The notes beneath the pieces were generated by a model, which was not told where the DNA came from, did not search any database, and was given only the letters and a program-made list of their open reading frames with translations. Positions 6,150-56,227 of a stretch of 64,000 nt of DNA are shown piece by piece (the stretch's first letter is position 1; the number at the start of each line of letters is the position of its first letter). Source of the DNA: an uncultured virus (IMG/VR IMGVR_UViG_3300028588_000812) (lineage: Duplodnaviria; Heunggongvirae; Uroviricota; Caudoviricetes); IMG/VR virus record IMGVR_UViG_3300028588_000812. One strand, 5' to 3'. Made by a program: the position numbers and the translations under genes.

Positions 6150-6217
6150 TTACTTTGTTACATTTATAGTATAACATGTTTTCTAAGTTCATGCAAATAT
6201 TTTATTCAGTTATTTTG

Positions 6218-6292
6218 TCGCTTCAATTGGATTTGAACCAATGCTCACAACACTCGGAAATATTGCGCTCTACCTGACTGAGCTATGAAGCG
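6218..6292 (-). tRNA. Atypical tRNA with 8-nt anticodon loop (TTTCCGAG)
   Basis: Body near-identical to 6076-6149; 18-nt anticodon arm. Confidence 0.65.
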
Positions 6293-9974: not shown

Positions 9975-10175
9975 TTACATGCCATTCTTCTGTAGTTCAA
10001 GCTCAATACCTTCACGGAGACTTTCATCGCCATGAAGCACGTAACTTAAAGCACTTTTGGTAATGTTAGACCATTTTTCCCAACCTGGCTCATTTTGTTT
10101 TGCATTAGCTAGATTGTAAAGACGTTCTAAACGTTTTCTTTCTTCGGAGTTAAGCATTTTTATAGTGTCGCCCAC
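9975..10175 (-). CDS. Hypothetical protein
   Basis: ORF in operon. Confidence 0.65.
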   Translation of the reverse strand: MGDTIKMLNSEERKRLERLYNLANAKQNEPGWEKWSNITKSALSYVLHGDESLREGIELELQKNGM

Positions 10176-10507
10176 CTAAGAATTTCGGAAGCAAATTTAA
10201 TTCGTTCTTGATTGATAGCCATATTGAATGAGTCGCCTTCGTGACTAACAAAGCTATATTGGCGAACTGTCCACAAAACCTCTTTTATGAGAACGCTCAT
10301 GCTATCTTCTTCGCTTGCGTCTTCGATAGCTGTCAAATAGTGACCAGCTTCGGTTTTGCGAATACTTGCTTTCATATAATCAATATTCACATATGTAGGA
10401 ATAAAATCTTGTTCTTTTACACCTAGATTATGATTTGCATGCCTTGATAAGAAATGCAAAATTGATTTGGCATCGCGTAATTCTAAGTCAATACTTAAAT
10501 TACTCAT
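10160..10507 (-). CDS. Hypothetical protein (start trimmed to MSNLSI)
   Basis: GAGG SD; longer ORF overlaps RNase P RNA. Confidence 0.7.
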   Translation of the reverse strand: MSNLSIDLELRDAKSILHFLSRHANHNLGVKEQDFIPTYVNIDYMKASIRKTEAGHYLTAIEDASEEDSMSVLIKEVLWTVRQYSFVSHEGDSFNMAINQERIKFASEILRWATL

Positions 10508-10534
10508 TTTCCTCATTCTTGTAAAGTTAAATAG

Positions 10535-10771
10535 AGAGCAAACCTGTAAGCCGGGTTTTGTCATTTAAGACTATCATCTATCTAAGCCACCTACCCGTTT
10601 TTCATAGGGGTGCAAGTCCCTCAAACTGTTTGGTGTTGCTGAATCCCTCACCTTGCTTTTTAAGTTAGGCTTAGTGGTACGAACGACAACTCTAGGTTAT
10701 CTCCCACACGGTACTTGCACAACAGCCCGGACTTTCCTCAATCTTACGACCGCGATAGTCCAGCTTGCTCT
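10535..10771 (-). ncRNA. rnpB: RNase P RNA, compact (about 240 nt)
   Basis: GAGGAAAGTCCGGGC (CR-I), AGATAGATGAT (CR-IV), ACAAAACCCGGCTTAC (CR-V), P1 AGAGCAAGC/GTTTGCTCT. Confidence 0.92.
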
Positions 10772-10781
10772 GTATATAACT

Positions 10782-10810
10782 AGATTAACACATTTAATCT
10801 ATCTTGTCAA
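10782..10810 (-). promoter_or_regulatory. Promoter for RNase P RNA
   Basis: TTGACA-N17-TAATCT just upstream of the RNA 5' end. Confidence 0.7.
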
Positions 10811-10993
10811 CTAAAACATGAATGGCCCATAACCGAAGCTATGAGCCATTCATTACAGAAAACCGAGTTCCTATTTTCGAGAAACCCCCAAGAATAATAG
10901 CGCTATTCTTCTTGGACAACCATGATACACATATGTTGCTCGTGTAACAGAGAGTTGGGTGTTTATTCTTTAAACAAACCTAAGTTTGTTTTG

Positions 10994-11066
10994 CTCCCCC
11001 ACCTGGACTCGAACCAAGAACCCACAAGTTAACAGCTTGTTGCTCTACCAATTGAGCTACAGGGGA
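10994..11066 (-). tRNA. tRNA-Asn(GTT)
   Basis: Cloverleaf. Confidence 0.95.
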
Positions 11067-11116: not shown

Positions 11117-11701
11117 TTAGAAAAGAGCTTTTTCTTTATGTAGATTGTTAATCATTTCATGGACACTAGGAATAACAAGATTATCAAACATTTCTCCGGT
11201 CACTACTCTATTACGAACTAAAGTTGAGCTAATATCTAAACATTCAATGTCAAGCTTAGTGATATGTTTAATTTTTTCATTTACATCAAAACCTGTTCTG
11301 TTGACAGCGATAATGTTTGCATTGTCAACAATCCAATCCCCTTGGTGCCATTCATGCATTGTTTGAGTTGAATCTGCACCAAATACCCAATAAAACTCGC
11401 GGTCAGGATATAAAGATGCTAATTCTTGCATTGTGTCATACGTTTCAATAGCAACAGGTCTAAACAATTCTAAATCTTTGATTTGAATTAAATTAGTCAA
11501 ATTATCATCTTGACGCATTGCTTCTAAGAAACCTAAACGAACGTCAAGAGGAACAGAAATTGTTTTATCAGTACGGTTTCCACTGGGAAGTAACCATACT
11601 TCTCCATCCATTTGTTCTGCTAAGTCAGTGCAAGCAGAAAGGATAGATTGGTGAGCTACTGTAGGCGGATTAAAAGCTCCCCCATAAATTATAGTTTTCA
11701 A
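11117..11701 (-). CDS. nadD: Nicotinate/nicotinamide-nucleotide adenylyltransferase
   Basis: GGAFNPPTVAH, FGADS, ISSTLVR motifs; TTG start with AAGGA SD. Confidence 0.9.
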   Translation of the reverse strand: MKTIIYGGAFNPPTVAHQSILSACTDLAEQMDGEVWLLPSGNRTDKTISVPLDVRLGFLEAMRQDDNLTNLIQIKDLELFRPVAIETYDTMQELASLYPDREFYWVFGADSTQTMHEWHQGDWIVDNANIIAVNRTGFDVNEKIKHITKLDIECLDISSTLVRNRVVTGEMFDNLVIPSVHEMINNLHKEKALF

Positions 11702-21498: not shown

Positions 21499-22230
21499 AT
21501 GATCAACAAATTGAATTTTCTTAAAAACTGGACACTCTTTGAGAAAATATGGCTTTTCACATCAGCCGCAATCCTATTTGTTCTAAGCCTCATCTGGCAT
21601 GACACGCCATTAGGCTTCGTTTCATCAATTACAGGTATCCTTACCGTAGTATTCGCAGCTAAAGGTAAAATAGCGACCTTCTACTTCGGTTTAATCCAAG
21701 CTGGAACTTACGCTTACATCGCTTACGGTTACGGATTATATGGAGAAGCAATGCTTAACGCTTTCTTCTACTTCCCAACACAAATTATTGGTTTAATTCT
21801 ATGGATGCGCCACAAGAAAAACCAGACAACAGCAGTTAACGGTGAAGACATTTACGCCAAACGTCTTACAAAGAAACAACTACTTATTTTCAGCCCAATT
21901 GTTCTCGCAGCAGTTCTTGGTTACGCGGTTATTCTAGAAACAATTAACGCTCAACAAGTAAGACTAGACAGCATCGCAGTTGTTCTTTCAATCGCAGCAC
22001 AAATACTTCTACTATTACGTTACGCCGAACAATGGATAATGTGGATTGTAGTTAACGTTCTAACAATTGCGTTATGGTTCTTCACCTTAGTTCAAAGTGG
22101 TGGAAACGACTGGGCAATCTTCGCCATGTGGGTAGCCTTCCTAGTTAACTCAGTATACGGTTACATTAACTGGCGTAAACTTTCAAAACCAGAAAACGTA
22201 GAAAAGAAAAAACAGGAAGTTCTCGCATAA
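21499..22230 (+). CDS. pnuC: Nicotinamide riboside transporter
   Basis: Multi-TM; AKGK, YGEA, EQWxxW, NSVYGYINW. Confidence 0.92.
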   Translation: MINKLNFLKNWTLFEKIWLFTSAAILFVLSLIWHDTPLGFVSSITGILTVVFAAKGKIATFYFGLIQAGTYAYIAYGYGLYGEAMLNAFFYFPTQIIGLILWMRHKKNQTTAVNGEDIYAKRLTKKQLLIFSPIVLAAVLGYAVILETINAQQVRLDSIAVVLSIAAQILLLLRYAEQWIMWIVVNVLTIALWFFTLVQSGGNDWAIFAMWVAFLVNSVYGYINWRKLSKPENVEKKKQEVLA

Positions 22231-23303
22231 TGGATTTTGGACCAGAGATAGAAACATACAAAGGCAAAACCATTGGAGTATATGGAGGCAAATTCTTCCC
22301 CTTCCATAACGGACACCTAAGCTTCATACTTAAAGCCCAATCAATGGTAGATATCTTATTCGTAGTATTACAATATGATGAAGACCACGAAAAAGCGTTA
22401 ACCAAAAATACACCATACGAATGGGTAGAACCACGCAAACGTGAAAGATGGATTACCGAAGAACTCAAACAGTTACCAAATATCCGTGTAACATCACAAT
22501 ACGAAAGACGCTCACCAGAGCATATGTCAGACCCAAGTATAGCTGTTACATACAATCAACTGTTAGAAGAAGTAGGTGGTAAAATTGACATTATATTCAG
22601 TAATACACATGATTATGATGAATACTTTGCCAAATATTTGCCTCAAAGCAAACATGTAGTTTTCTATGAAAACAGAGAAGAAATCAATATCTCCGCAACA
22701 CAAATTAGAGAACAGAACGTTTACAACACATGGGAATACTTACCTCATTCTGTTCAAACGTTTTATACCAAACGTGTGGCCTTATGTGGAATAGAATCAG
22801 TAGGTAAAACACACATGAGTAAAATGTTAGCTAAAAGTTTCTCTACTGTGACAGCACCTGAATATGGCCGTTTCTATTATGACGAACTGAATGCCTACAC
22901 AGGAATTGACCAAGAAACAGATTATATTGATATTGCAACAGGTCATTGTTATCTTCTTAACCAGGAAGTGAAAAAAGCACACAAAGTTCTTATTGCTGAT
23001 TCCGACTTAATCTACACACAGTTTTTCTACATGCAATCATATGGTAAGAAAAATGAAGTGTTAGATTTAATGATTAAACAACATGCAGATAAGATTGACG
23101 AATATTTATACATTGAGCCATACAATTTTCATGAATTAGATGGAACAAGGTTACATGTAGATGATGAAAAACGTGCACAAAATAATGCTCAACTTAAAGA
23201 ATTATATTTAAGTTATGGTGTAAAAATTACTTTCATCGCAGAAGCAGATAGAGACAAACGTTATCAAGCATGTGTTAACAAAGTAAAACAAATATTAAAC
23301 TAA
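22230..23303 (+). CDS. nadR: Bifunctional NMN adenylyltransferase / NR kinase (NadR without HTH)
   Basis: GGKFFPFHNGH, ISATQIR, GIESVGKT, EYGR; TAATG coupling to pnuC. Confidence 0.92.
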   Translation: MDFGPEIETYKGKTIGVYGGKFFPFHNGHLSFILKAQSMVDILFVVLQYDEDHEKALTKNTPYEWVEPRKRERWITEELKQLPNIRVTSQYERRSPEHMSDPSIAVTYNQLLEEVGGKIDIIFSNTHDYDEYFAKYLPQSKHVVFYENREEINISATQIREQNVYNTWEYLPHSVQTFYTKRVALCGIESVGKTHMSKMLAKSFSTVTAPEYGRFYYDELNAYTGIDQETDYIDIATGHCYLLNQEVKKAHKVLIADSDLIYTQFFYMQSYGKKNEVLDLMIKQHADKIDEYLYIEPYNFHELDGTRLHVDDEKRAQNNAQLKELYLSYGVKITFIAEADRDKRYQACVNKVKQILN

Positions 23304-32385: not shown

Positions 32386-32958
32386 TTATATTTGTTTTGC
32401 TCTTTTGTATTCAAGTTCCCATATGTCTTTTAGGTTGATGGGGATGTTGTTTAAATTTAGGGTGTTTTGTGTGTGTGAGGTAAGGTAATCGCTTTCTTGG
32501 GGATATCTGCCTGTTTTTGGGCAGACTTGTTTTAGTTCTATTTTTTCTTCTTTTGTGGAGAAGTTTATTTCTGCTTTTGCACGGAGTAGAAGGTGTTGTT
32601 GTTCGTGTTCTTTGCCGCATGGGCATGTCATGTTATCGCTGGTATCAGGGCTGTAGTTGATGTTGATTGGTAAAAATGTGTCATCTGGTGTTACTTTGGT
32701 TGAATTTGTGTAACCGTACATTTGGTTGAGTAGCGGTTTGATTGTTTGTATTCTTTGTTCATCTGCTTCGTTTTGTACTGGTTGTGCTAGTGCTAGTAGG
32801 TGTTCTAGGAATTGTACTATTTCTTGTGGCTCGGTGATGACAGTGTTGTTTCTTTTGTAGGTGTGTTTTAGAGTTATGGTGTTGTTTGCTAAATTTATAC
32901 CTATTTTGATTTTGTCGTAAGCATACTTTTTGTATGTGATTTCTTGGTAAATAAACAT
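32386..32958 (-). CDS. Tandem paralog family, copy 10
   Basis: MFIY, FLEHLLALA, LNQMYGY, CPCG. Confidence 0.85.
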   Translation of the reverse strand: MFIYQEITYKKYAYDKIKIGINLANNTITLKHTYKRNNTVITEPQEIVQFLEHLLALAQPVQNEADEQRIQTIKPLLNQMYGYTNSTKVTPDDTFLPININYSPDTSDNMTCPCGKEHEQQHLLLRAKAEINFSTKEEKIELKQVCPKTGRYPQESDYLTSHTQNTLNLNNIPINLKDIWELEYKRAKQI

Positions 32959-32988
32959 GAGTTGTTGTTTTCCTGTTCTATATGTGGC

Positions 32989-33591
32989 TTATATTTGTGT
33001 TGGTTCGGGGTAGTGTGGTTGCCAAAGTTTTTTGTATTTTTCTGGTATTTGGTTGAGGTCTAAACTGTTTTGTTGGTAAACTGTTCGGTATTCTTTTATG
33101 GGAGTGCGGTAACCCATTAACTGAATTCCTGTTTTGGGGCATCCTTGTAGTAGTTCTAGTTTTTCTTCTCCTGTTGTGAAGTTTTTGGATGCTTTGCCTG
33201 CCGCGTTTATAGCTTGTTTGTGTTCTGTTCCGCAAACACATGGTAACACTATGTGCGGTATGTAGTGCCATGTGTTTAAATTTATTTGTAATGAATTGTC
33301 ATCTGGTTTTGTTTTTGGTGATTTTATGTAACCGTACATTTGGTTGAGTAGTGGTTGTATTGTTTTTATGTTTCGTTCGTCTTGCCAGTCTTTTGCTGGT
33401 TGTGCTAGTGCTAGTAAATGTTCTAGGAATTGTATTATTTCTTGTGGGTCTGTGATGACAGTGTTGTATTCTTTACGGTCTAACCCTGTGTAGGTGTGTT
33501 TTAGTTTAGTAGTATGTTTGGTTAGATTGATACCTAAGTGTATGGTGTCGTAGGTGTATCTGTTATAGGGGAGTTCTTTATAAATGAACAT
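32989..33591 (-). CDS. Tandem paralog family, copy 9
   Basis: Same motifs plus NFTTGEEKL. Confidence 0.85.
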   Translation of the reverse strand: MFIYKELPYNRYTYDTIHLGINLTKHTTKLKHTYTGLDRKEYNTVITDPQEIIQFLEHLLALAQPAKDWQDERNIKTIQPLLNQMYGYIKSPKTKPDDNSLQINLNTWHYIPHIVLPCVCGTEHKQAINAAGKASKNFTTGEEKLELLQGCPKTGIQLMGYRTPIKEYRTVYQQNSLDLNQIPEKYKKLWQPHYPEPTQI

Positions 33592-33594
33592 GTT

Positions 33595-34188
33595 TTATAT
33601 TCTCGTTGCTGCTCTGTAGTGTAGTTTCCATGCACTTTTGTATGGTTCTGGGATGCGGTTTAGGTTTAGTGTGTCTTGGGTGTAAACTGTAAGGTATTCT
33701 TCTTCTGGTGTCCAGGCCACGATACTTTTTGGGCATTCTTGACGTAGTTCTAGTTTTTCTTCTCCTGTTGTGAAGTTTTTGGATGCTTTTGCTCTTACCC
33801 CTATTGAACGCCTTTTGTGTCGTTCGCCGCATGGGCATGGTACGTCTGTTGGACTTACGCTGGAGTAATATCCAAGGTCTACTTCTAGGAATGTGTCATC
33901 TGGTTGAATTTCTGCTGATTGGATGTAACCGTACATTTGGTTTAGGATTGGTTTAATTGTTTCTATTCTTTGTTCATCTGCTTCGTTTTGTACTGGTTGT
34001 GCTAGTGCTAGTAGGTGTTCTAGGAATTGTACTATTTCTTGTGGCTCGGTGATGATGGTGTTGTGTTTTGTTCGGTCTAAACCTGTGTAGGAGTGTTTTA
34101 GTTTGGTAGTATTTTTGGCTATGTTGATACCAAATTTTACTTTGTCGTAGGTATATTTGTTGTAGTAGAATTCTCGGTAGATGAACAT
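33595..34188 (-). CDS. Tandem paralog family, copy 8
   Basis: Same motifs. Confidence 0.85.
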   Translation of the reverse strand: MFIYREFYYNKYTYDKVKFGINIAKNTTKLKHSYTGLDRTKHNTIITEPQEIVQFLEHLLALAQPVQNEADEQRIETIKPILNQMYGYIQSAEIQPDDTFLEVDLGYYSSVSPTDVPCPCGERHKRRSIGVRAKASKNFTTGEEKLELRQECPKSIVAWTPEEEYLTVYTQDTLNLNRIPEPYKSAWKLHYRAATRI

Positions 34189-34215
34189 TTTGTGTGGTTT
34201 TCTATTTGATGGTGG

Positions 34216-34857
34216 TTAGAGTCTTGTTGCTTTGCTGTAGCGTGGTCGCCAGATAGCTTTTAGGTCTTCTGGTATGAGTGCTAGGTTTAGGTTTTCTTGT
34301 TTGTATGTTATTGAGTGGTAACCTAATGTTGGTATACGTTTTCCGTGTGTGGGAAAGTAGTTGTTTATTTCTGGTGTTTCAGGTAGTTTTGCTTTAACAC
34401 ATGTGTGATGTAGTTCTAATATTTCTTGACCTGTTGTAAAGTTTTTACCTGCTCGTACTATTAACCCTATTTGTTTAGCGTCGTGATTTGTTTGATAGTC
34501 GGGACATGCGATATCTACATTAAGTTTGTAAGTATCGCATTCTATGTCTACTGGTAAATATTTGTGGTCTTGGGTTGTTTCTGACGATTTGATGTAACCG
34601 TATATTTGGTTTAAGAGTGGTTTGATTTCTTTTATTCTTCGTTCATCTTCTTCATCTTGCGCAGGTGTTACTAATGCTATTAGGTGTTCTAGGAATTGTA
34701 CTGCTTCTGCTGTTTCAGTAATGGTGGTGTGATATCTTTTACGATCTATACTCACGTAGTTGTGTTTTATTTTTAGGGTGCGTTTATAAAGGTTGATGCC
34801 TATTTTTATAGTTTTATACGTGTATTTATTGTATTCGACTTCTTGGTAGATGAACAT
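34216..34857 (-). CDS. Tandem paralog family, copy 7
   Basis: Same motifs. Confidence 0.85.
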   Translation of the reverse strand: MFIYQEVEYNKYTYKTIKIGINLYKRTLKIKHNYVSIDRKRYHTTITETAEAVQFLEHLIALVTPAQDEEDERRIKEIKPLLNQIYGYIKSSETTQDHKYLPVDIECDTYKLNVDIACPDYQTNHDAKQIGLIVRAGKNFTTGQEILELHHTCVKAKLPETPEINNYFPTHGKRIPTLGYHSITYKQENLNLALIPEDLKAIWRPRYSKATRL

Positions 34858-34884
34858 TTTGTGTGATTTCTAGGTTGTGGTGGT

Positions 34885-35487
34885 TTATATTCTTTTTGCT
34901 TTGTAGTATTGTGGTTGCCAGATAGCTTTGTATTGTTCTGGTACGCTATTTAAGTTTAGTGTGTTTTGTGTGTAGGTTATGAGAAAATCTTCTTCAAGCA
35001 TTAAGTTTGCGTTAGATTCTGGGCATTCTTGGCGTAGTTCTAGTTTTTCTTCTCCTGTTGTGAAGTTTTTTCCTGCATTTCCTATTATGCCTATTATACC
35101 TATTTTACAATGGTCATGCTTTTGCCCACAGGGGCATGGTAATAAGTCTATATTTGACAAAAAACGAACCGTCATACCGACTGATAGAAAAGTGTCATCT
35201 GGTTTTACTTTTGCTGATTTTGTGTACCCGTACATTTGATTTAGTAGTGGTTCAATTTTTTTTATTCTTTGTTCATCTGTTTCATCTTGTGCGGGTTGAG
35301 ATAACGCTAATAAGTGTTCTAAGAATTCCACTATCTCTTGTGGTTCGGTGATGATAGTGTTGTGTTTTATGCGGTCTGGGCCTGTGTAGGTATGTTTTAG
35401 CTTGATAGTGTTTTTAGCTAAGTTAATACCAAATTTTATTTTGTCAAAAGTGTACTTGTTATAATCAAATTCTCGATAGATGAACAT
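34885..35487 (-). CDS. Tandem paralog family, copy 6
   Basis: Same motifs. Confidence 0.85.
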   Translation of the reverse strand: MFIYREFDYNKYTFDKIKFGINLAKNTIKLKHTYTGPDRIKHNTIITEPQEIVEFLEHLLALSQPAQDETDEQRIKKIEPLLNQMYGYTKSAKVKPDDTFLSVGMTVRFLSNIDLLPCPCGQKHDHCKIGIIGIIGNAGKNFTTGEEKLELRQECPESNANLMLEEDFLITYTQNTLNLNSVPEQYKAIWQPQYYKAKRI

Positions 35488-35540
35488 TTTGTGTGGTTTC
35501 TAGGTTGTGGTGAGTGTTTAGTGTGTTGTTAACGTTGATG

Positions 35541-36143
35541 TTATCTTGTGTACCATTTGGGTTCCTCTACATCTGTTATATATTTGGGTATTTGCGTGAG
35601 GTCTAAGGTTTTTTGTTTATGGAACGCTACGTCTTTATGTTGGTGTCGACAGTTGAATGTTACTTTTAGTTTTTCTTCACCTGTTGTTAAATTGATTTTA
35701 GCTTTAATCTCTGCTGTTAGGTTGTAGTTATTGTTTGGTTGACCACAGGCGCATGTTGTATAGAATGGTCCTTCGTGTTCTTCATATGCACTATAATCTG
35801 GACCATATTCTAATCCTACTGGCAAGAATTTGTTTGACTTCTTTGCGTTTGGTAAGTTTAGGTAGCCTCGCACTTGGTTAAGTGCCTCTTCTGTGTCTTT
35901 TATTCTTTCTTCATTTTGTATTTGCAGATATTCATTTATTTCTGGTGGGACTGTTTCTGCTAATGCTAGTAGCTGTTCGAGGCATGCAACAATTTGTTCA
36001 GGCTGTGTTTCTTTTGTTTCATGGTGCTGCTGACGCTCATAGTAATCATGAATTAATTCAACTGTATGGTTTTCTAGGTTGAAAAATATTCGTACAGTAT
36101 GGTATGTATACCTACGGTAATATATGTTTATTGTTGTGAACAT
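35541..36143 (-). CDS. Tandem paralog family, copy 5
   Basis: LEQLLALA, CACG, NLTTGEEKL. Confidence 0.85.
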   Translation of the reverse strand: MFTTINIYYRRYTYHTVRIFFNLENHTVELIHDYYERQQHHETKETQPEQIVACLEQLLALAETVPPEINEYLQIQNEERIKDTEEALNQVRGYLNLPNAKKSNKFLPVGLEYGPDYSAYEEHEGPFYTTCACGQPNNNYNLTAEIKAKINLTTGEEKLKVTFNCRHQHKDVAFHKQKTLDLTQIPKYITDVEEPKWYTR

Positions 36144-36167
36144 AATCTATTTACACTTTCCATAGTT

Positions 36168-36797
36168 TTATTTAGTAATTGTTGCGCCTGCATATGTATA
36201 CCATTTTGGTTTTTCTATTTTTGTTATATATTCAGGTATTTGTGTTAAGTCTAATGTATCTTGTTCATGAATTATAATATCTTCATGTTGGTGTCGACAT
36301 TTTAGTGTTACTTGTAAGTTTTCTTCACCTGTTGTGAAGTTAATTTTAGCTTTTATGTCTGCTGTTAAATTACGACTTTTATTTGTTTTGCCACAGGCGC
36401 ATGTTGAATAGAATGGCCCTTCTGTTGTTGCGTAGGCTGCACCACCTGGTCCATGATGTACTGGCATTGATACAAAATAATCTGTTATTTCTGCTTTTGG
36501 TAATTTAAGATATCCGCGCACTTGATTGAGGATTTCTTTTGTTTGTTGTAGCCTTTGTTTATTTATTTCTTGCAAATCTTCTGCTGCTTCTAGGTGGCCT
36601 GGTTCTGCTAAAGCAACTAGCTGTTCTAGACATGCAATTATTTGTTCTGGCTCTGTTTCACGTGTTGTATAACTTTTACCGTCATCATCACGATATTCAT
36701 GGATTAAGTTAATTGTATGGTTTTCTAATTGGAACGTTACTTCTACGAAAGTATATGTATATTGGTTATAAGATATATTTAGTGTAATATGATGCAT
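36168..36797 (-). CDS. Tandem paralog family, copy 4
   Basis: LEQLVALA, CACG, NFTTGEE. Confidence 0.85.
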   Translation of the reverse strand: MHHITLNISYNQYTYTFVEVTFQLENHTINLIHEYRDDDGKSYTTRETEPEQIIACLEQLVALAEPGHLEAAEDLQEINKQRLQQTKEILNQVRGYLKLPKAEITDYFVSMPVHHGPGGAAYATTEGPFYSTCACGKTNKSRNLTADIKAKINFTTGEENLQVTLKCRHQHEDIIIHEQDTLDLTQIPEYITKIEKPKWYTYAGATITK

Positions 36798-36805
36798 AAT
36801 TTATT

Positions 36806-37426
36806 TTATGGCTCCCATAACTCTACTTTGTCATTCCATGCTATCTGCATTTTTTGTTTCCATATTTCAGGTATTTGTTCAAGGTCTAAGGTATTTTGTT
36901 CATGTACGGTGTCATATGTGTGTCTATGTTGACACCAGTTTGTTATCTTTATTAACTCTTCACCTGTTGTAAAGTTTTTGGTTGCTTGTGCATAGTTCAC
37001 TACGACAGTTTCTGCTGTAGTTAAACCACAGGTGCATCTTACATGGCGAACGACATTGTTATGGTATCCCGTGTAATCACGGTGTTGGTAACTTAATAGA
37101 ATTTCTAAAGGTTTTTCTTGAATTTCTACATCAGGGAAACCGAAGAAAGCGCGGGTATGGTTAAGTAATGGCTTGATTGCTCGTATTCTTTGTTCATCTA
37201 GCTCGTCTACTTCAACTAATTCATCTGTTGAGGGCCTTGCTAACGCTAAAAGTTGTTCTAGGGCTGCGATTACTTGTTCGGGGTCAGTTACTTTTGTGGC
37301 GTAACGTGTCCACGATCTATCATAATAGTCATGAACTAAAGCTACTTCTTTGGTCACCAAATTTAGCCTATATTGTATGGCATTGTAATTATATTTAGCA
37401 TATTGAATGTTTTGAAAAATATACAT
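36806..37426 (-). CDS. Tandem paralog family, copy 3
   Basis: LEQLLALA, CTCG, NFTTGEE. Confidence 0.85.
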   Translation of the reverse strand: MYIFQNIQYAKYNYNAIQYRLNLVTKEVALVHDYYDRSWTRYATKVTDPEQVIAALEQLLALARPSTDELVEVDELDEQRIRAIKPLLNHTRAFFGFPDVEIQEKPLEILLSYQHRDYTGYHNNVVRHVRCTCGLTTAETVVVNYAQATKNFTTGEELIKITNWCQHRHTYDTVHEQNTLDLEQIPEIWKQKMQIAWNDKVELWEP

Positions 37427-37428
37427 TT

Positions 37429-38070
37429 TTATTTTACCTTTAGTGGTTTGGTGTATTGCGGTTGAAAACGTTGTACTAAGTTTTCGGGAAGCATATTGAG
37501 GTCTAAGGTGTCTTGCCTATAATAGCTGTACCAACCTCCCATGTGGGAACAATATTGGTCTACGCTTGTAATTTCTTCTTTGGTTACTAAGTTTATGAAA
37601 CCATTTACTTTATATGTGTATGGTGCTGTTGTATTTTCTGGTGTTTCTTGTATTCCACAGACACAAAGAAGCGGGGCATCAGGGTTATTCCATTTATTGA
37701 CATGTTTGTTATTTTTCAACGAAATATGCATTGCAAGATATTGTTCTTCTGCAATTTCTTCTGTAGTTTTAACTAACTCTATGCCTAAATAATGTTTTAT
37801 CTGGGTGAGCCAAAAGTTTATGCCAATGTCTATACTTTGGCCATATACGCCTTGATTTGAGTTAATTGCTAATAAGTGTTCTAAAATAACAATAATTTGT
37901 TCTGTATCTGTTTCTTCCGTTGTATGGATTTTAACGTTATTTTCACCAAGTTCAGTATGTAACTCTCTGTAGGTATGGGTAAGCATAAGTTCTTTTGTGT
38001 CAAGATTAATTGTTAAATACAAATAATCATATGCATGTTGGGAATATGCTATGTAAGAGTAAACGTACAT
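37429..38070 (-). CDS. Tandem paralog family, copy 2
   Basis: LEHLLA, CVCG, QDTLDL. Confidence 0.82.
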   Translation of the reverse strand: MYVYSYIAYSQHAYDYLYLTINLDTKELMLTHTYRELHTELGENNVKIHTTEETDTEQIIVILEHLLAINSNQGVYGQSIDIGINFWLTQIKHYLGIELVKTTEEIAEEQYLAMHISLKNNKHVNKWNNPDAPLLCVCGIQETPENTTAPYTYKVNGFINLVTKEEITSVDQYCSHMGGWYSYYRQDTLDLNMLPENLVQRFQPQYTKPLKVK

Positions 38071-38072
38071 AT

Positions 38073-38669
38073 TTATTCGTAGCTTTTTTCGAAGTGGAAT
38101 GGTTTGTTATTAGCCTGAATTTCTTGTGGTAGGTATTCAAGGTTTAGACTATCTTGGGTGTAGATAGTGTTGTACTCATCTGTGTGGTAGCAGTATTCTT
38201 GTACTGTAATTTCTTCTTTGTTTTTGGCTACGTCAATAAGTCCACGGATGGTAATGAATGGGCGTCCGTATTCTGCGTTGTCAATTGTTTTGTTACAATG
38301 ACAAATGCTTTCACCTAGTGGGTTCCAGCTACGGTCTGTGATACCTACTTCAATGTCAAGGTAATAGTCCTCTTGTCCGCTGTCTGCTGGCCCTGTGAGC
38401 GCTTTAATCTGGTTTAGCATGTGGTTGAGCGCAGCCGCGTTTTCGGGCTGTTCTACGGCGTTTAGGTCAGCTAGAAGCTCTGCAATGTACTGTGCTGCTT
38501 TCTCATCTTTGAGTTCTTCGCAGCCGTAACATCCGTAGCTGTGCATTAATTCTACAGTTTTGTTTGCTAGGTCAAATGTGACATGAAGTTCATCACGATC
38601 ATAACCTCCACATGTTGAACATGAGGAAGTTGAGGTAGTAGGAAAATCAATTTGTTGGCTTGCAAACAT
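38073..38669 (-). CDS. Tandem paralog family, copy 1 (most divergent; extra CxxC pairs)
   Basis: LNQIK, CHC, YCYH, QDSLNL. Confidence 0.78.
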   Translation of the reverse strand: MFASQQIDFPTTSTSSCSTCGGYDRDELHVTFDLANKTVELMHSYGCYGCEELKDEKAAQYIAELLADLNAVEQPENAAALNHMLNQIKALTGPADSGQEDYYLDIEVGITDRSWNPLGESICHCNKTIDNAEYGRPFITIRGLIDVAKNKEEITVQEYCYHTDEYNTIYTQDSLNLEYLPQEIQANNKPFHFEKSYE

Positions 38670-40275: not shown

Positions 40276-40442
40276 ATGTTTTGTTGCTATAGTAATAGTA
40301 TAACATATTTTTTATTGCTATGCAACTATTATCGGCAGTTTTAAGTTTTAAGGTGAACCCACATACCCGTCAGAGCATAGTTACCCTTGCTACGTTTCCG
40401 TCCTGGGGGAGTTAGCCATGATAACGTCATGTGAGCCACCAG

Positions 40443-40515
40443 AGCCTCCTGCCGGACTCGAACCGGCCACCTTTTCATTACGAGTGAAACGCTCTACCTG
40501 ATGAGCTAAGAAGGC
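40443..40515 (-). tRNA. tRNA-Thr(CGT)
   Basis: Cloverleaf. Confidence 0.93.
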
Positions 40516-40949: not shown

Positions 40950-42275
40950 TTAGTTTCGCAACTCTTGAAGCTCATAACTATGAGGAATATCAACAATTTG
41001 ATAACCGTGTTGACGAATTTGTTCACGAAGAAAATATGATTGCGCCCATTCTTTATTAGTACGAGCTTTCAAACGTTCTTGCGCTAACTGTTCAACTTCC
41101 TGAGGAACGACAACTGTTCTAATGGAAAACACTTTCATAAAACCATTAATCTTTTTTATGAAATCAATGAATGACTGATTTGGCTTTAAATTATTTGTAT
41201 TAGCTTGTTTAACTAAAGTCATAAGAGCAGCTAAAGCCATTGGGGTATTAAAGTCATTGTTTAGGGCTTCAAAGAAAACATTTTTAAGTTGTTCAACTTG
41301 TTCATTAGTAATTTCGTCACCTGACGTTTTGTTATAAAAATCGTTAATACGTGCAAGTTCTTTTTCTGCTTGCAATAGTGTCGTGTTATTGATTTCTATA
41401 TTAGAACGGTAATGATGTTTAATGAAATAGTATCTTAATATCTCAGGTTGTGTTGTGGAATGGAAATTTCTGATGCGTGTAAAGTTACCTAAGCTTTTGG
41501 ACATTTTAGTTCCGTTGACTTCCAACAAACCAGTATGCAACCACATTTGTGCTAAGGGATGTTTACCGGATAAGCTTTCCATTTGAATAATTTCAGCTTC
41601 ATGATGAGGGAAAATTAAATCACTTGCTCCACCATGAATTTGATATTGTTCCCCAAACACTTTTTCAGTAATAGCGGTATCTTCAATATGCCAACCTGGT
41701 CTACCGTTACCGAAATTAGCTTCCCAGTATGGTTCGTTAGGTTTGTTATATTTCCAGATAACAAAATCGCCTTCATTAATTTTATTGCTTGTATTAATGC
41801 GACTGTGTTCCTGGTTTTCGCTATGATAGAACCTAGGTTCAGATGGAGCTTTATTCAAATCAAAATATACACCATCATTTTTGATAATATATGCTTTACC
41901 CATATCAAGTAGCCTTTGGACTTGACTGACGATTTCTGGAATGAAATCACTAGCGTTAGCTATTTGGTCATATGCATTATTTTTAAGCCATGCCATATCC
42001 ACAAAAAATTCTTTACTGTATTGTTCAGCTACATCTTTATAATCAACATTTAATGTGTTAGCTTTATTGATAATTTTGTCATCAATATCAGTAATGTTGA
42101 TAAGATATTTGACTGTTGTGAGTTGTTTTAAATACTCTATGATGAAGTCAAATTGTGTGTATGTTTTGGCGTGACCCAGATGACTGTAATCATATACAGT
42201 TGGTCCGCAGACAAAGAAATTAATGTGTTGCTGTGTATTGAATGTCTCTAACTGTTTAGTTAGAGTGTTGAACAT
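40950..42275 (-). CDS. cysS: Cysteinyl-tRNA synthetase
   Basis: CGPTVYDYSHLGHA, NITDIDDKII, GRPGWHIED, DLIFPHHE, KMSKS. Confidence 0.95.
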   Translation of the reverse strand: MFNTLTKQLETFNTQQHINFFVCGPTVYDYSHLGHAKTYTQFDFIIEYLKQLTTVKYLINITDIDDKIINKANTLNVDYKDVAEQYSKEFFVDMAWLKNNAYDQIANASDFIPEIVSQVQRLLDMGKAYIIKNDGVYFDLNKAPSEPRFYHSENQEHSRINTSNKINEGDFVIWKYNKPNEPYWEANFGNGRPGWHIEDTAITEKVFGEQYQIHGGASDLIFPHHEAEIIQMESLSGKHPLAQMWLHTGLLEVNGTKMSKSLGNFTRIRNFHSTTQPEILRYYFIKHHYRSNIEINNTTLLQAEKELARINDFYNKTSGDEITNEQVEQLKNVFFEALNNDFNTPMALAALMTLVKQANTNNLKPNQSFIDFIKKINGFMKVFSIRTVVVPQEVEQLAQERLKARTNKEWAQSYFLREQIRQHGYQIVDIPHSYELQELRN

Positions 42276-42331
42276 TTTACTTCCATAATGGAAATCGTTT
42301 CCTTTCATATAAAATGTTATGCATTAATGCG

Positions 42332-55618: not shown

Positions 55619-55729
55619 ATACATTCAGATATAACGACCAACTGAATTAATTGGTTAGTGCTTACGCCACTACTCTGCCTCACCAAGGCCCAGCTTCTTC
55701 ATCTGGGAGAGCATGTGGGATACGTTACG

Positions 55730-55816
55730 CGGATAGGATGGGAGTCGAACCCACACGCGACTTTCGCCGCAGACTGTTTTCTAGACAGTTGCCGCCACCA
55801 TTCGGCTGGCCTATCC
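55730..55816 (-). tRNA. tRNA-Ser(AGA)
   Basis: Loop CT-AGA-AA; duplicate of next gene. Confidence 0.88.
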
Positions 55817-55858
55817 ATATGCAAACATTTCTGTTCACTATGGTGTTATTTTGTTACG

Positions 55859-55945
55859 CGGATAGGATGGGAGTCGAACCCACACGCGACTTTCGCCGCA
55901 GACTGCTTTCAAGGCAGTTGCCGCCACCATTCGGCTGGCCTATCC
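55859..55945 (-). tRNA. tRNA-Ser(TGA)
   Basis: Loop CT-TGA-AA. Confidence 0.9.
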
Positions 55946-56132: not shown

Positions 56133-56153
56133 TTAGTGTGTATATGTGTTACG

Positions 56154-56227
56154 TGGAATATGTGGGACTCGAACCCAGTCTTTTGCTGCCGTCTAACAGC
56201 CGTTCTCACCCGTTGAACTAATATCCC
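56154..56227 (-). tRNA. tRNA-like RNA with Ala acceptor (G3:U70) and 6-nt anticodon loop
   Basis: GGGATAT/ATATTCC-A; arm GCTGT-TAGACG-GCAGC. Confidence 0.6.

Follow-up and report, generated by a model that had tools for sequence, protein, structure and literature searches.

The minus strand of the window (the whole 64-kb stretch of DNA analysed here) carries a homologue of the type A bacterial RNase P RNA, and it can be stated with high confidence that this homologue is under selection and expressed. The RNA is probably an active, miniaturised derivative of the type A ribozyme belonging to a tRNA-rich phage or phage-like element, in which it would serve as a tRNA 5'-maturase together with the host protein RnpA.

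Identity and catalytic domain of the RNA

When 701 nt of the window (10300-11000) were scanned with Rfam at an E-value threshold, RF00010 (RNaseP_bact_a) gave a single strong match at 10531-10771 on the minus strand (86.3 bits, E 1.1e-26), running end to end over model positions 1-367. An RNase P RNA had been proposed here in an earlier note made from the letters alone, which had asked for a comparison with this model; the comparison bears the proposal out and assigns the strand. The curated gathering threshold (GA) of RF00010 is 100 bits, so that the window RNA, with 86.3, is missed by standard annotation, and a gathering-threshold Rfam scan of the 64-kb window listed 90 other RNAs and no RNase P match. 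A family covariance model, R1, found exactly one copy in the window, again at 10531-10771 (-), over model positions 1-222 and with 187 bits, a score that is partly circular since the window sequence is part of the R1 seed; non-seed relatives score 46-180 bits. The length is 241 nt by the covariance models and 251 nt (10527-10777) by a junction in an RNA-library contig, in keeping with the roughly 240 nt first estimated. The features referred to below, with structural elements as predicted, are listed from upstream to downstream.

10993-11066 (-): tRNA-Asn, upstream of the RNA
10818..10853 (-): 16-bp terminator-like hairpin, between tRNA-Asn and the RNA and upstream of TTGACA
10805..10810 (-): perfect -35-like TTGACA, 27 nt upstream of the putative 5' end; candidate promoter element
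10527..10777 (-): whole RNase P-like RNA, 251 nt; a metatranscriptome contig joins 10527 to 10777 (covariance models: 10531-10771)
10763..10771 (-): P1 5' strand AGAGCAAGC, pairing with 10535-10543
10754..10761 (-): P2 5' strand, pairing with 10568-10575
10739..10752 (-): P3, a minimal 5-bp hairpin with a GUAA (GNRA) tetraloop
10725..10739 (-): CR-I and P4 5' strand GAGGAAAGUCCGGGC, including the bulged U
10713..10720 (-): P6 pseudoknot 5' strand GUGCAAGU, 8 bp with 10610-10617 in the P16/17 loop
10642..10712 (-): S-domain remnant, 71 nt between P6 and the P5 3' strand; three-way junction
within 10642-10712 (-): P7, CC/GG, 2 bp in the window RNA and 2-3 bp across the family
10674-10707 (-): hairpin PX, with an internal loop and distal stem GAUAAC/GUUGUC
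10650-10670 (-): hairpin PY, 4 bp, with a conserved 13-nt A-rich loop AACUUAAAAAGCA at 10654-10666
10635..10639 (-): J5/15 GCAAC, from the alignment
10586..10635 (-): P15-P16/17 module, comprising P15 CACC/GGUG, a hairpin and CGGGUA
10606-10621 (-): hairpin AGGG[ACUUGCAC]CCCU, whose loop forms P6
10592-10597 (-): CGGGUA with GGU, in the P15-P16/17 module
10575..10585 (-): CR-IV / J15-2 UUAGAUAGAUG, directly after P15
10543..10562 (-): CR-V and P4 3' strand GACAAAACCCGGCUUACAGG, from the alignment
10535..10543 (-): P1 3' strand GUUUGCUCU, pairing with 10763-10771
10160..10507 (-): downstream ORF of 115 aa, ATG after a GAGGAAA ribosome-binding site, no family match

As judged from the alignment, the catalytic domain lacks only P18; it comprises P1-P6, P15-P16/17, CR-I, CR-IV, CR-V, J5/15 GCAA and the GGU of L15. 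CR-I is identical to the RF00010 consensus while CR-IV and CR-V are close to it, so the three signatures that had been read from the letters are indeed there; P1-P3, P5 and P15-P17 are also aligned. P4 is formed by 10725-10739 with 10548-10555 and keeps its bulged U, the extended P6 and the GGU of the P15 loop are both found, and beyond a C.C mismatch three further pairs lengthen P1 to the contig-mapped ends. In type A enzymes the GGU of CGGGUA binds the 3' end of the tRNA. CR-IV follows directly after P15, leaving no P18, and the 24 RF00010 model positions of P18 align to 0 nt. The window RNA thus matches R1 over its full length with the P18-less J15/2, the extended P6 and the PX-UAAG-PY remnant of the family. 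One departure counts against the active-ribozyme reading: in CR-V the window copy has an A where 31 of 33 relatives have a G (ACAAAA vs ACAGAA).

A shifted or remodelled outer P4 was observed in L003, L004 (Zooman, Big4), L027, L086, L092, L100, L109, L088 and L067, for example GGAAGUUCC with GGGCUA, or AACUUCC/AACCUCC with GGGGUA. The remodelling is compensated on both strands and adjoins the catalytic bulged U.

Covariation and the specificity-domain remnant

A structure was built by hand on a model-made alignment (A5) of 33 mini RNAs, in which 89.6% of 1797 cells are paired; shuffles reach 68.8%, and sliding the partners by 1-3 columns gives 35-42%. Compensatory changes occur in 44 of the 59 pairs and none of 500 shuffles reached any observed measure, although these pair counts lean towards the structure because A5 was fitted to nested helices. 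Covariation extends to the P4 and P6 pseudoknots, which the model used for the alignment did not contain. In P4 the pairing reaches 99.2% of cells and four of the eight pairs show compensatory changes (variants GGG/CCC, GGA/UCC, GGU/ACC, GAG/CUC, GCG/CGC and GUG/CAC), and P6 keeps 7-8 pairs with sequences that are entirely different between members. The single-stranded motifs are conserved among members whose helices differ almost completely. Such patterns make a strong case that the fold is under selection; the minimum-free-energy z-score of -1.45 is uninformative, as the RNA is pseudoknotted.

The clearest departure from the type A enzyme concerns the specificity (S) domain. In the alignment 81 nt take the place of about 140 RF00010 model positions (~73-213), and no P7-P14 domain with canonical CR-II (ACAGAAA) or CR-III (GGGUGAAA) is found, which agrees with what had been read from the letters; a complete S domain, the finding that would have spoken against a reduced ribozyme, is likewise absent from the alignment. 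Against the 367 positions of the model, the 241-251 nt of the window RNA appear to have lost P18, P8/P9 as such and P13/P14, with P3 cut to 5 bp, P6 lengthened to 8 bp and the S domain brought down to a 71-nt three-way junction. The earlier description of an RNA lacking a normal specificity domain is right as to the reduction and the complete catalytic core, but the domain is not simply missing, since the 71 nt at 10642-10712 form a conserved, covarying remnant. The window RNA is without a normal S domain, yet 'lacking an S domain' is the wrong description of it.

Within the remnant, the 4-bp base of PX (GUGG/CCAC in the window RNA) covaries across the family (GUAG/CUAC, CUGG/CCAG, GCAG/CUGC, CCGG/CCGG), and the stretch that it encloses ranges between 5 and 178 nt in length. 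In the family alignment PX is followed by a fixed UAAG and PY by GMRGG, and the PY stem covaries as well (GCUC/GAGC, GCAC/GUGC, GUCG/CGGC, GGCC/GGUC). Conservation and covariation across the family argue that the remnant is under selection. As to its descent, PY may be a shrunken P12 flanked by relics of CR-II and CR-III, or PX and PY may have descended from P8 and P9. The arrangement CCAC-UAAG-CC...GGU-GMRGG resembles the consensus CcAC-AGAAA...CC...GGu-AAGGGUGAAA around P12, a resemblance and not a test, and the UAARA in the PY loop could, speculatively, form a T-loop-like turn. In L063/L084 (180 nt) PX and the PY 5' strand are lost while the PY loop and all else are kept; these may be either a further reduction or a dead copy.

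CR-II and CR-III form the tRNA-elbow reader of the normal enzyme, and with their canonical forms absent the efficiency on normal tRNAs could be poor. The earlier note had suggested completion in trans by another non-coding RNA. More generally, a split enzyme might obtain its specificity domain from a second phage RNA or from an unrecognised phage protein, given that many window ORFs lack a family match and that the window is 64 kb of a possibly much larger genome; in the archaeal and eukaryal enzymes, moreover, proteins replace functions of the RNA. The window itself offers no support for completion by a second RNA, as R1 finds a single match there and CR-II/III-like motifs occur at chance level (2 found against 5.8 expected, and 27 against 21.9). 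Nor is there a conserved protein neighbour, the gene being flanked by tRNAs in relatives, and the conserved S remnant suggests that the remnant does the job itself. A split enzyme is accordingly considered very unlikely.

Carriers, distribution and expression

By blastn against cultured phages, the 3' half of the RNA was found in four Microbacterium foliorum phages of ~192 kb. A3Wally, Zooman, Big4 and one more Microbacterium phage each carry a 221-nt RF00010 match of 51-72 bits, and the 221-nt copy exactly fills an unannotated gap between tRNA-Arg(ccg) and tRNA-Arg(cct) in the four phages. The same search with the RNA of L076 returned A3Wally again and nothing else, and with that of L021, the closest IMG/VR relative, it gave no match. 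Further relatives were collected by pattern scans of IMG/VR and metagenome contigs, by nhmmer and by R1 (ten seed sequences); CGGGUA formed part of the pattern that collected most of them, which qualifies its conservation. With nhmmer and R1, 56 matches were recognised that represent 55 distinct RNAs, giving a family of at least 55 distinct sequences, all of them on phage or metagenome contigs and mostly inside tRNA arrays.

Two exact patterns were of limited yield. The first, CCGTGTGG...CCACTAAGC, gave 35 loci of which only five looked real by their exact CR-I/CR-V motifs, and nhmmer later added L027 and L030. The pattern GGAAAGTCCG N{150,180} CCGGCTTA in viral contigs gave 21 loci; among the 17 new ones only L047 is an RNase P RNA, the rest being chance matches.

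No cellular copy was found, as two independent exact patterns gave 0 matches in 185,579 bacterial and archaeal species genomes (one genome per species), the first exact pattern recovering, by a rough check, about five of seven members found by other routes. The 51 complete RNAs measure 180-395 nt, 36 of them being no longer than 250 nt, and the relatives, scoring 34-178 bits, grade continuously in size into forms above the RF00010 cut-off. The largest members above the Rfam threshold, L074 (347 nt, 178 bits), L077, L093 and L100, keep P7-P12 with recognisable CR-II and CR-III and are without P13/P14 and P18. Because the largest forms retain these elements and the small ones do not, the family looks like a reduction series.

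The locus was called phage-encoded in the earlier note, and this is supported by its tRNA-rich, phage-like surroundings and by relatives in bona fide phages. An identical RNA was found on a metagenome contig of 791,393 bp (L096); other carrier contigs are of 358, 232, 218 (with direct terminal repeats, 100% complete), 203, 171 and 115 kb. No phage structural or hallmark genes were found within the 64-kb window, and L021, on the contig of 203 kb, is classed as a 'provirus'. Together with the 791-kb contig match, these observations leave room for an integrated or otherwise unusual element, and the carrier may be either this or a very large phage. Among the 54 loci other than that of the window, same-strand tRNAs are present in 40 and an opposite-strand tRNA in none, and in 32 one end of the RNA is no more than 10 nt from a tRNA.

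The window (GC content 38%) contains 92 tRNA genes by ARAGORN and 90 Rfam RNA matches, all on the minus strand, and in 71 of the 92 tRNA genes position -1 is a T, the base that bacterial RNase P prefers. By a crude test CCA is encoded in only about 10 of the 92, so that the GGU-CCA contact may go unused at the time of cleavage. Many of the tRNAs are duplicates, for instance several Thr(tgt) and Pro(tgg). Two tRNA-like genes at 6217-6292 and 56153-56227 (-) have four-base anticodons (tccg, agac; ARAGORN) and could be frameshift-suppressor-type tRNAs or mis-calls, and two long-arm tRNAs at 55729-55945 (-) match tRNA-Sec best in Rfam (47.1 and 50.2 bits, GA 47) and were called tRNA-Ser(aga) and tRNA-Ser(tga) by ARAGORN. 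A bacterial small SRP (4.5S) RNA at 40346-40443 (-) (55.8 bits, GA 40) adjoins tRNA-Thr(cgt) at 40442-40515 inside the tRNA array, and a full-length class I cysteinyl-tRNA synthetase (PF01406, E 7e-87) is encoded amid tRNA genes at 40950-42308 (-).

Other genes of the window include an NAD-salvage set at 11117-11701 (-), 21499-22230 (+) and 22230-23303 (+), namely an NMN adenylyltransferase-like protein, a PnuC NMN transporter and a NadR-like protein (cytidylyltransferase + AAA_28). About ten tandem head-to-tail ORFs of roughly 190-213 aa at 32389-38669 (-), without a Pfam match, look like a paralogue array. An HNH endonuclease is also encoded, and most window ORFs have no family match.

A full-length RNase P RNA was also found in a cultured jumbo cyanophage, Microcystis phage MaAM05 (L118 862-1261, record 115284-115683; RF00010 251.8 bits). 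The record leaves this 400-nt class A RNA, which lies in an intergenic gap, unannotated, and the MaAM05 genome gave no rnpA match. It shares with the mini family the status of an unannotated, phage-borne rnpB-like gene; its S domain is complete and P18 is present, however, which marks it as a host-like copy outside the family.

An 801-nt stretch around the gene is present in leaf-litter and straw metagenomes and in six metatranscriptome runs. RNA-library contigs cover the gene in four runs (four studies, leaf litter) at depths of 11.1, 26.7, 15.5 and 58.9, and separate flank contigs in three of these four runs are at 3.3, 3 and 2.6, below the gene. Assembled contigs cannot give the strand, the true ends or proof of transcription, DNA carry-over into RNA libraries being possible, and missing contig cover in the 801 nt, as over tRNA-Asn, does not indicate silence; the contigs are good, though not conclusive, evidence of expression. 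They stop at 10757, 10764, 10772 and 10777 on the 5' side of the RNA, and one runs from the ribozyme into the 115-aa downstream ORF. One metatranscriptome contig (run X16) closes on itself as a cycle of 251 nt, position 10777 coming directly after 10527 without any shared letters, a junction that suggests the termini of a discrete 251-nt molecule. The closed form could reflect a circular RNA, ligation of the P1-apposed ends during library preparation, or template switching. In Microbacterium phage A3Wally an RNA ligase gene lies at the end of the tRNA array.

A promoter upstream of the RNA is plausible. The dedicated promoter claimed in the earlier note is upheld as far as the perfect TTGACA at 10805-10810 (-) goes, but a sigma-70 consensus scan of the minus strand returned no site ahead of the RNA, and the -10 candidates, read by eye, are weak.

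The view that the RNA is a functionless relic, a captured fragment of host rnpB eroding in tRNA islands, would account for the score under the Rfam threshold and for the large deletions, and in L063 (180 nt) even more of the remnant is gone. Erosion fits poorly with compensatory changes in 44 of the 59 pairs, with single-stranded motifs that are kept despite near-complete divergence of the helices, and with an RNA that is present in RNA libraries and maintained as at least 55 distinct sequences. Decay is therefore scarcely credible.

Proposed function, relation to known systems and significance

In the favoured interpretation, an active miniaturised ribozyme, the RNA would be made during infection alongside the element's roughly 90 or more tRNAs and would assemble with host RnpA into a hybrid holoenzyme of phage RNA and host protein. 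This enzyme would cleave the 5' leaders of the phage pre-tRNAs, giving extra processing capacity for a sudden flood of substrate. As the gene abuts tRNAs in most relatives, RNase P itself would do part of the work of releasing the ribozyme from the tRNA transcript, and the cut that removes the leader of the next tRNA would at the same time create the ribozyme 3' end. The elements for chemistry and for binding of the acceptor end all appear to be retained, namely the P1-P4 core with the bulged U, CR-I, CR-IV and CR-V, J5/15, the enlarged P6 and the GGU of the P15 loop. The partnership with a host protein is suggested by the failure to find a phage RnpA: PF00825 (RnpA) is absent from nine of nine related phage records, complete genomes included (the positive control was detected in 10 of 14 genomes), and from the 71 window ORFs scanned.

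The same absence of RnpA from the nine records would also suit an RNA that mainly binds the host RNase P protein, as a sponge or specificity switch that shuts down or retargets host tRNA maturation and is not chiefly a booster of capacity. The bacterial RNase P protein binds the catalytic (C) domain, which is the part kept here, and the depth above the flanks in RNA libraries would be in keeping with such a role. A sponge would not need the catalytic-core nucleotides, the P4 bulged U, J5/15 and the GGU loop, all of which are conserved family-wide, and the phage's own tRNA genes, 92 in the window alone, need RNase P too. This reading is distinctly unlikely.

A bolder extension of the maturase reading is that phages run their own RNase P, with virus-specific, self-releasing minimal ribozymes in which PX/PY, with its T-loop-like UAARA loop, is a new tRNA-reading module and the processing of tRNA arrays is independent of, or preferred over, the host RNase P RNA. 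Though unlikely, this would mean that a phage RNase P could help when defence systems or host shut-off attack tRNA pools or their processing, and that the closed 251-nt junction is a circularised, exonuclease-resistant form of the ribozyme.

The RNA, whether or not active, can be compared with several known systems. With the type A RNase P RNA (RF00010; E. coli M1 RNA, rnpB) it has in common CR-I, CR-IV, CR-V, P1-P5, the P4 and P6 pseudoknots, the GGU of the P15 internal loop and J5/15 GCAA; in contrast to E. coli-type rnpB, it is located on a phage-like element without rnpA. The archaeal type T RNA of Pyrobaculum (Thermoproteaceae) has kept its catalytic domain and lost most of the specificity domain, but it has archaeal features and works with several archaeal proteins, whereas the window RNA is of bacterial type A in every retained element and has RF00010 as its best clan match, in a scan that lists only the top-scoring member of the clan. 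By these sequence criteria the likeness to type T is probably one of convergent reduction and not of membership.

According to Lui et al. (2021, PMC8172020), CPR bacteria have diverged RNase P RNAs without P12/P13/P14/P18. Like the phage mini RNAs these are type-A-derived and fall below the Rfam threshold through helix loss that includes P18; they differ in being described there as the sole cellular rnpB of small-genome bacteria, whereas the phage family occurs in phage tRNA arrays and had no match in the 185,579 species genomes. An engineered 'Eco CP RPR', consisting of the E. coli C domain only, cleaves without an S domain (Mao et al., 2018, PMC5839562). In that paper the P6-type interaction matters for C-domain activity, and P18, whose docking partner is P8, can be dispensed with when there is no S domain. 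The phage RNA matches this design in its strong, enlarged P6 and its lack of P18, and differs from it in being natural and in keeping the conserved 71-nt S remnant.

Mycobacterium austroafricanum and M. sp. YC-RL4 have been described as carrying second RPR copies whose S domains are aberrant, with conserved catalytic residues and an adjacent endonuclease gene, and horizontal transfer was suggested by the authors (Behra et al., 2022, PMC9569102). They lie in bacterial genomes, whereas the phage family is on phage or metagenome contigs, and the two are likened here by description only. A literature search, with subscription journals and supplements outside its scope, found no paper on a phage-encoded RNase P RNA, and in a 2024 review (PMC11143913), checked by term search, 'phage-encoded' is used for tRNAs only. 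Reduced RNase P RNAs are known already from Pyrobaculum, CPR bacteria and engineered constructs, and the phage-borne mini family appears to be new.

To our knowledge, RNase P RNA has been regarded as a strictly cellular, near-universal gene. Annotation pipelines overlook the phage mini RNase P genes, whose scores lie under the Rfam threshold, and with a widespread lineage of this kind in phages, the translation-related functions carried by viruses would come to include a ribozyme. The family amounts to a natural experiment on how small a bacterial RNase P RNA can become, its members reaching about 210-250 nt with a conserved replacement for elbow reading. Its members in cultured, harmless Microbacterium phages make the roles of the S domain, P18 and P6 testable in vivo, and in the same phages it can be tested whether an RNA of one source works with the protein subunit of another.
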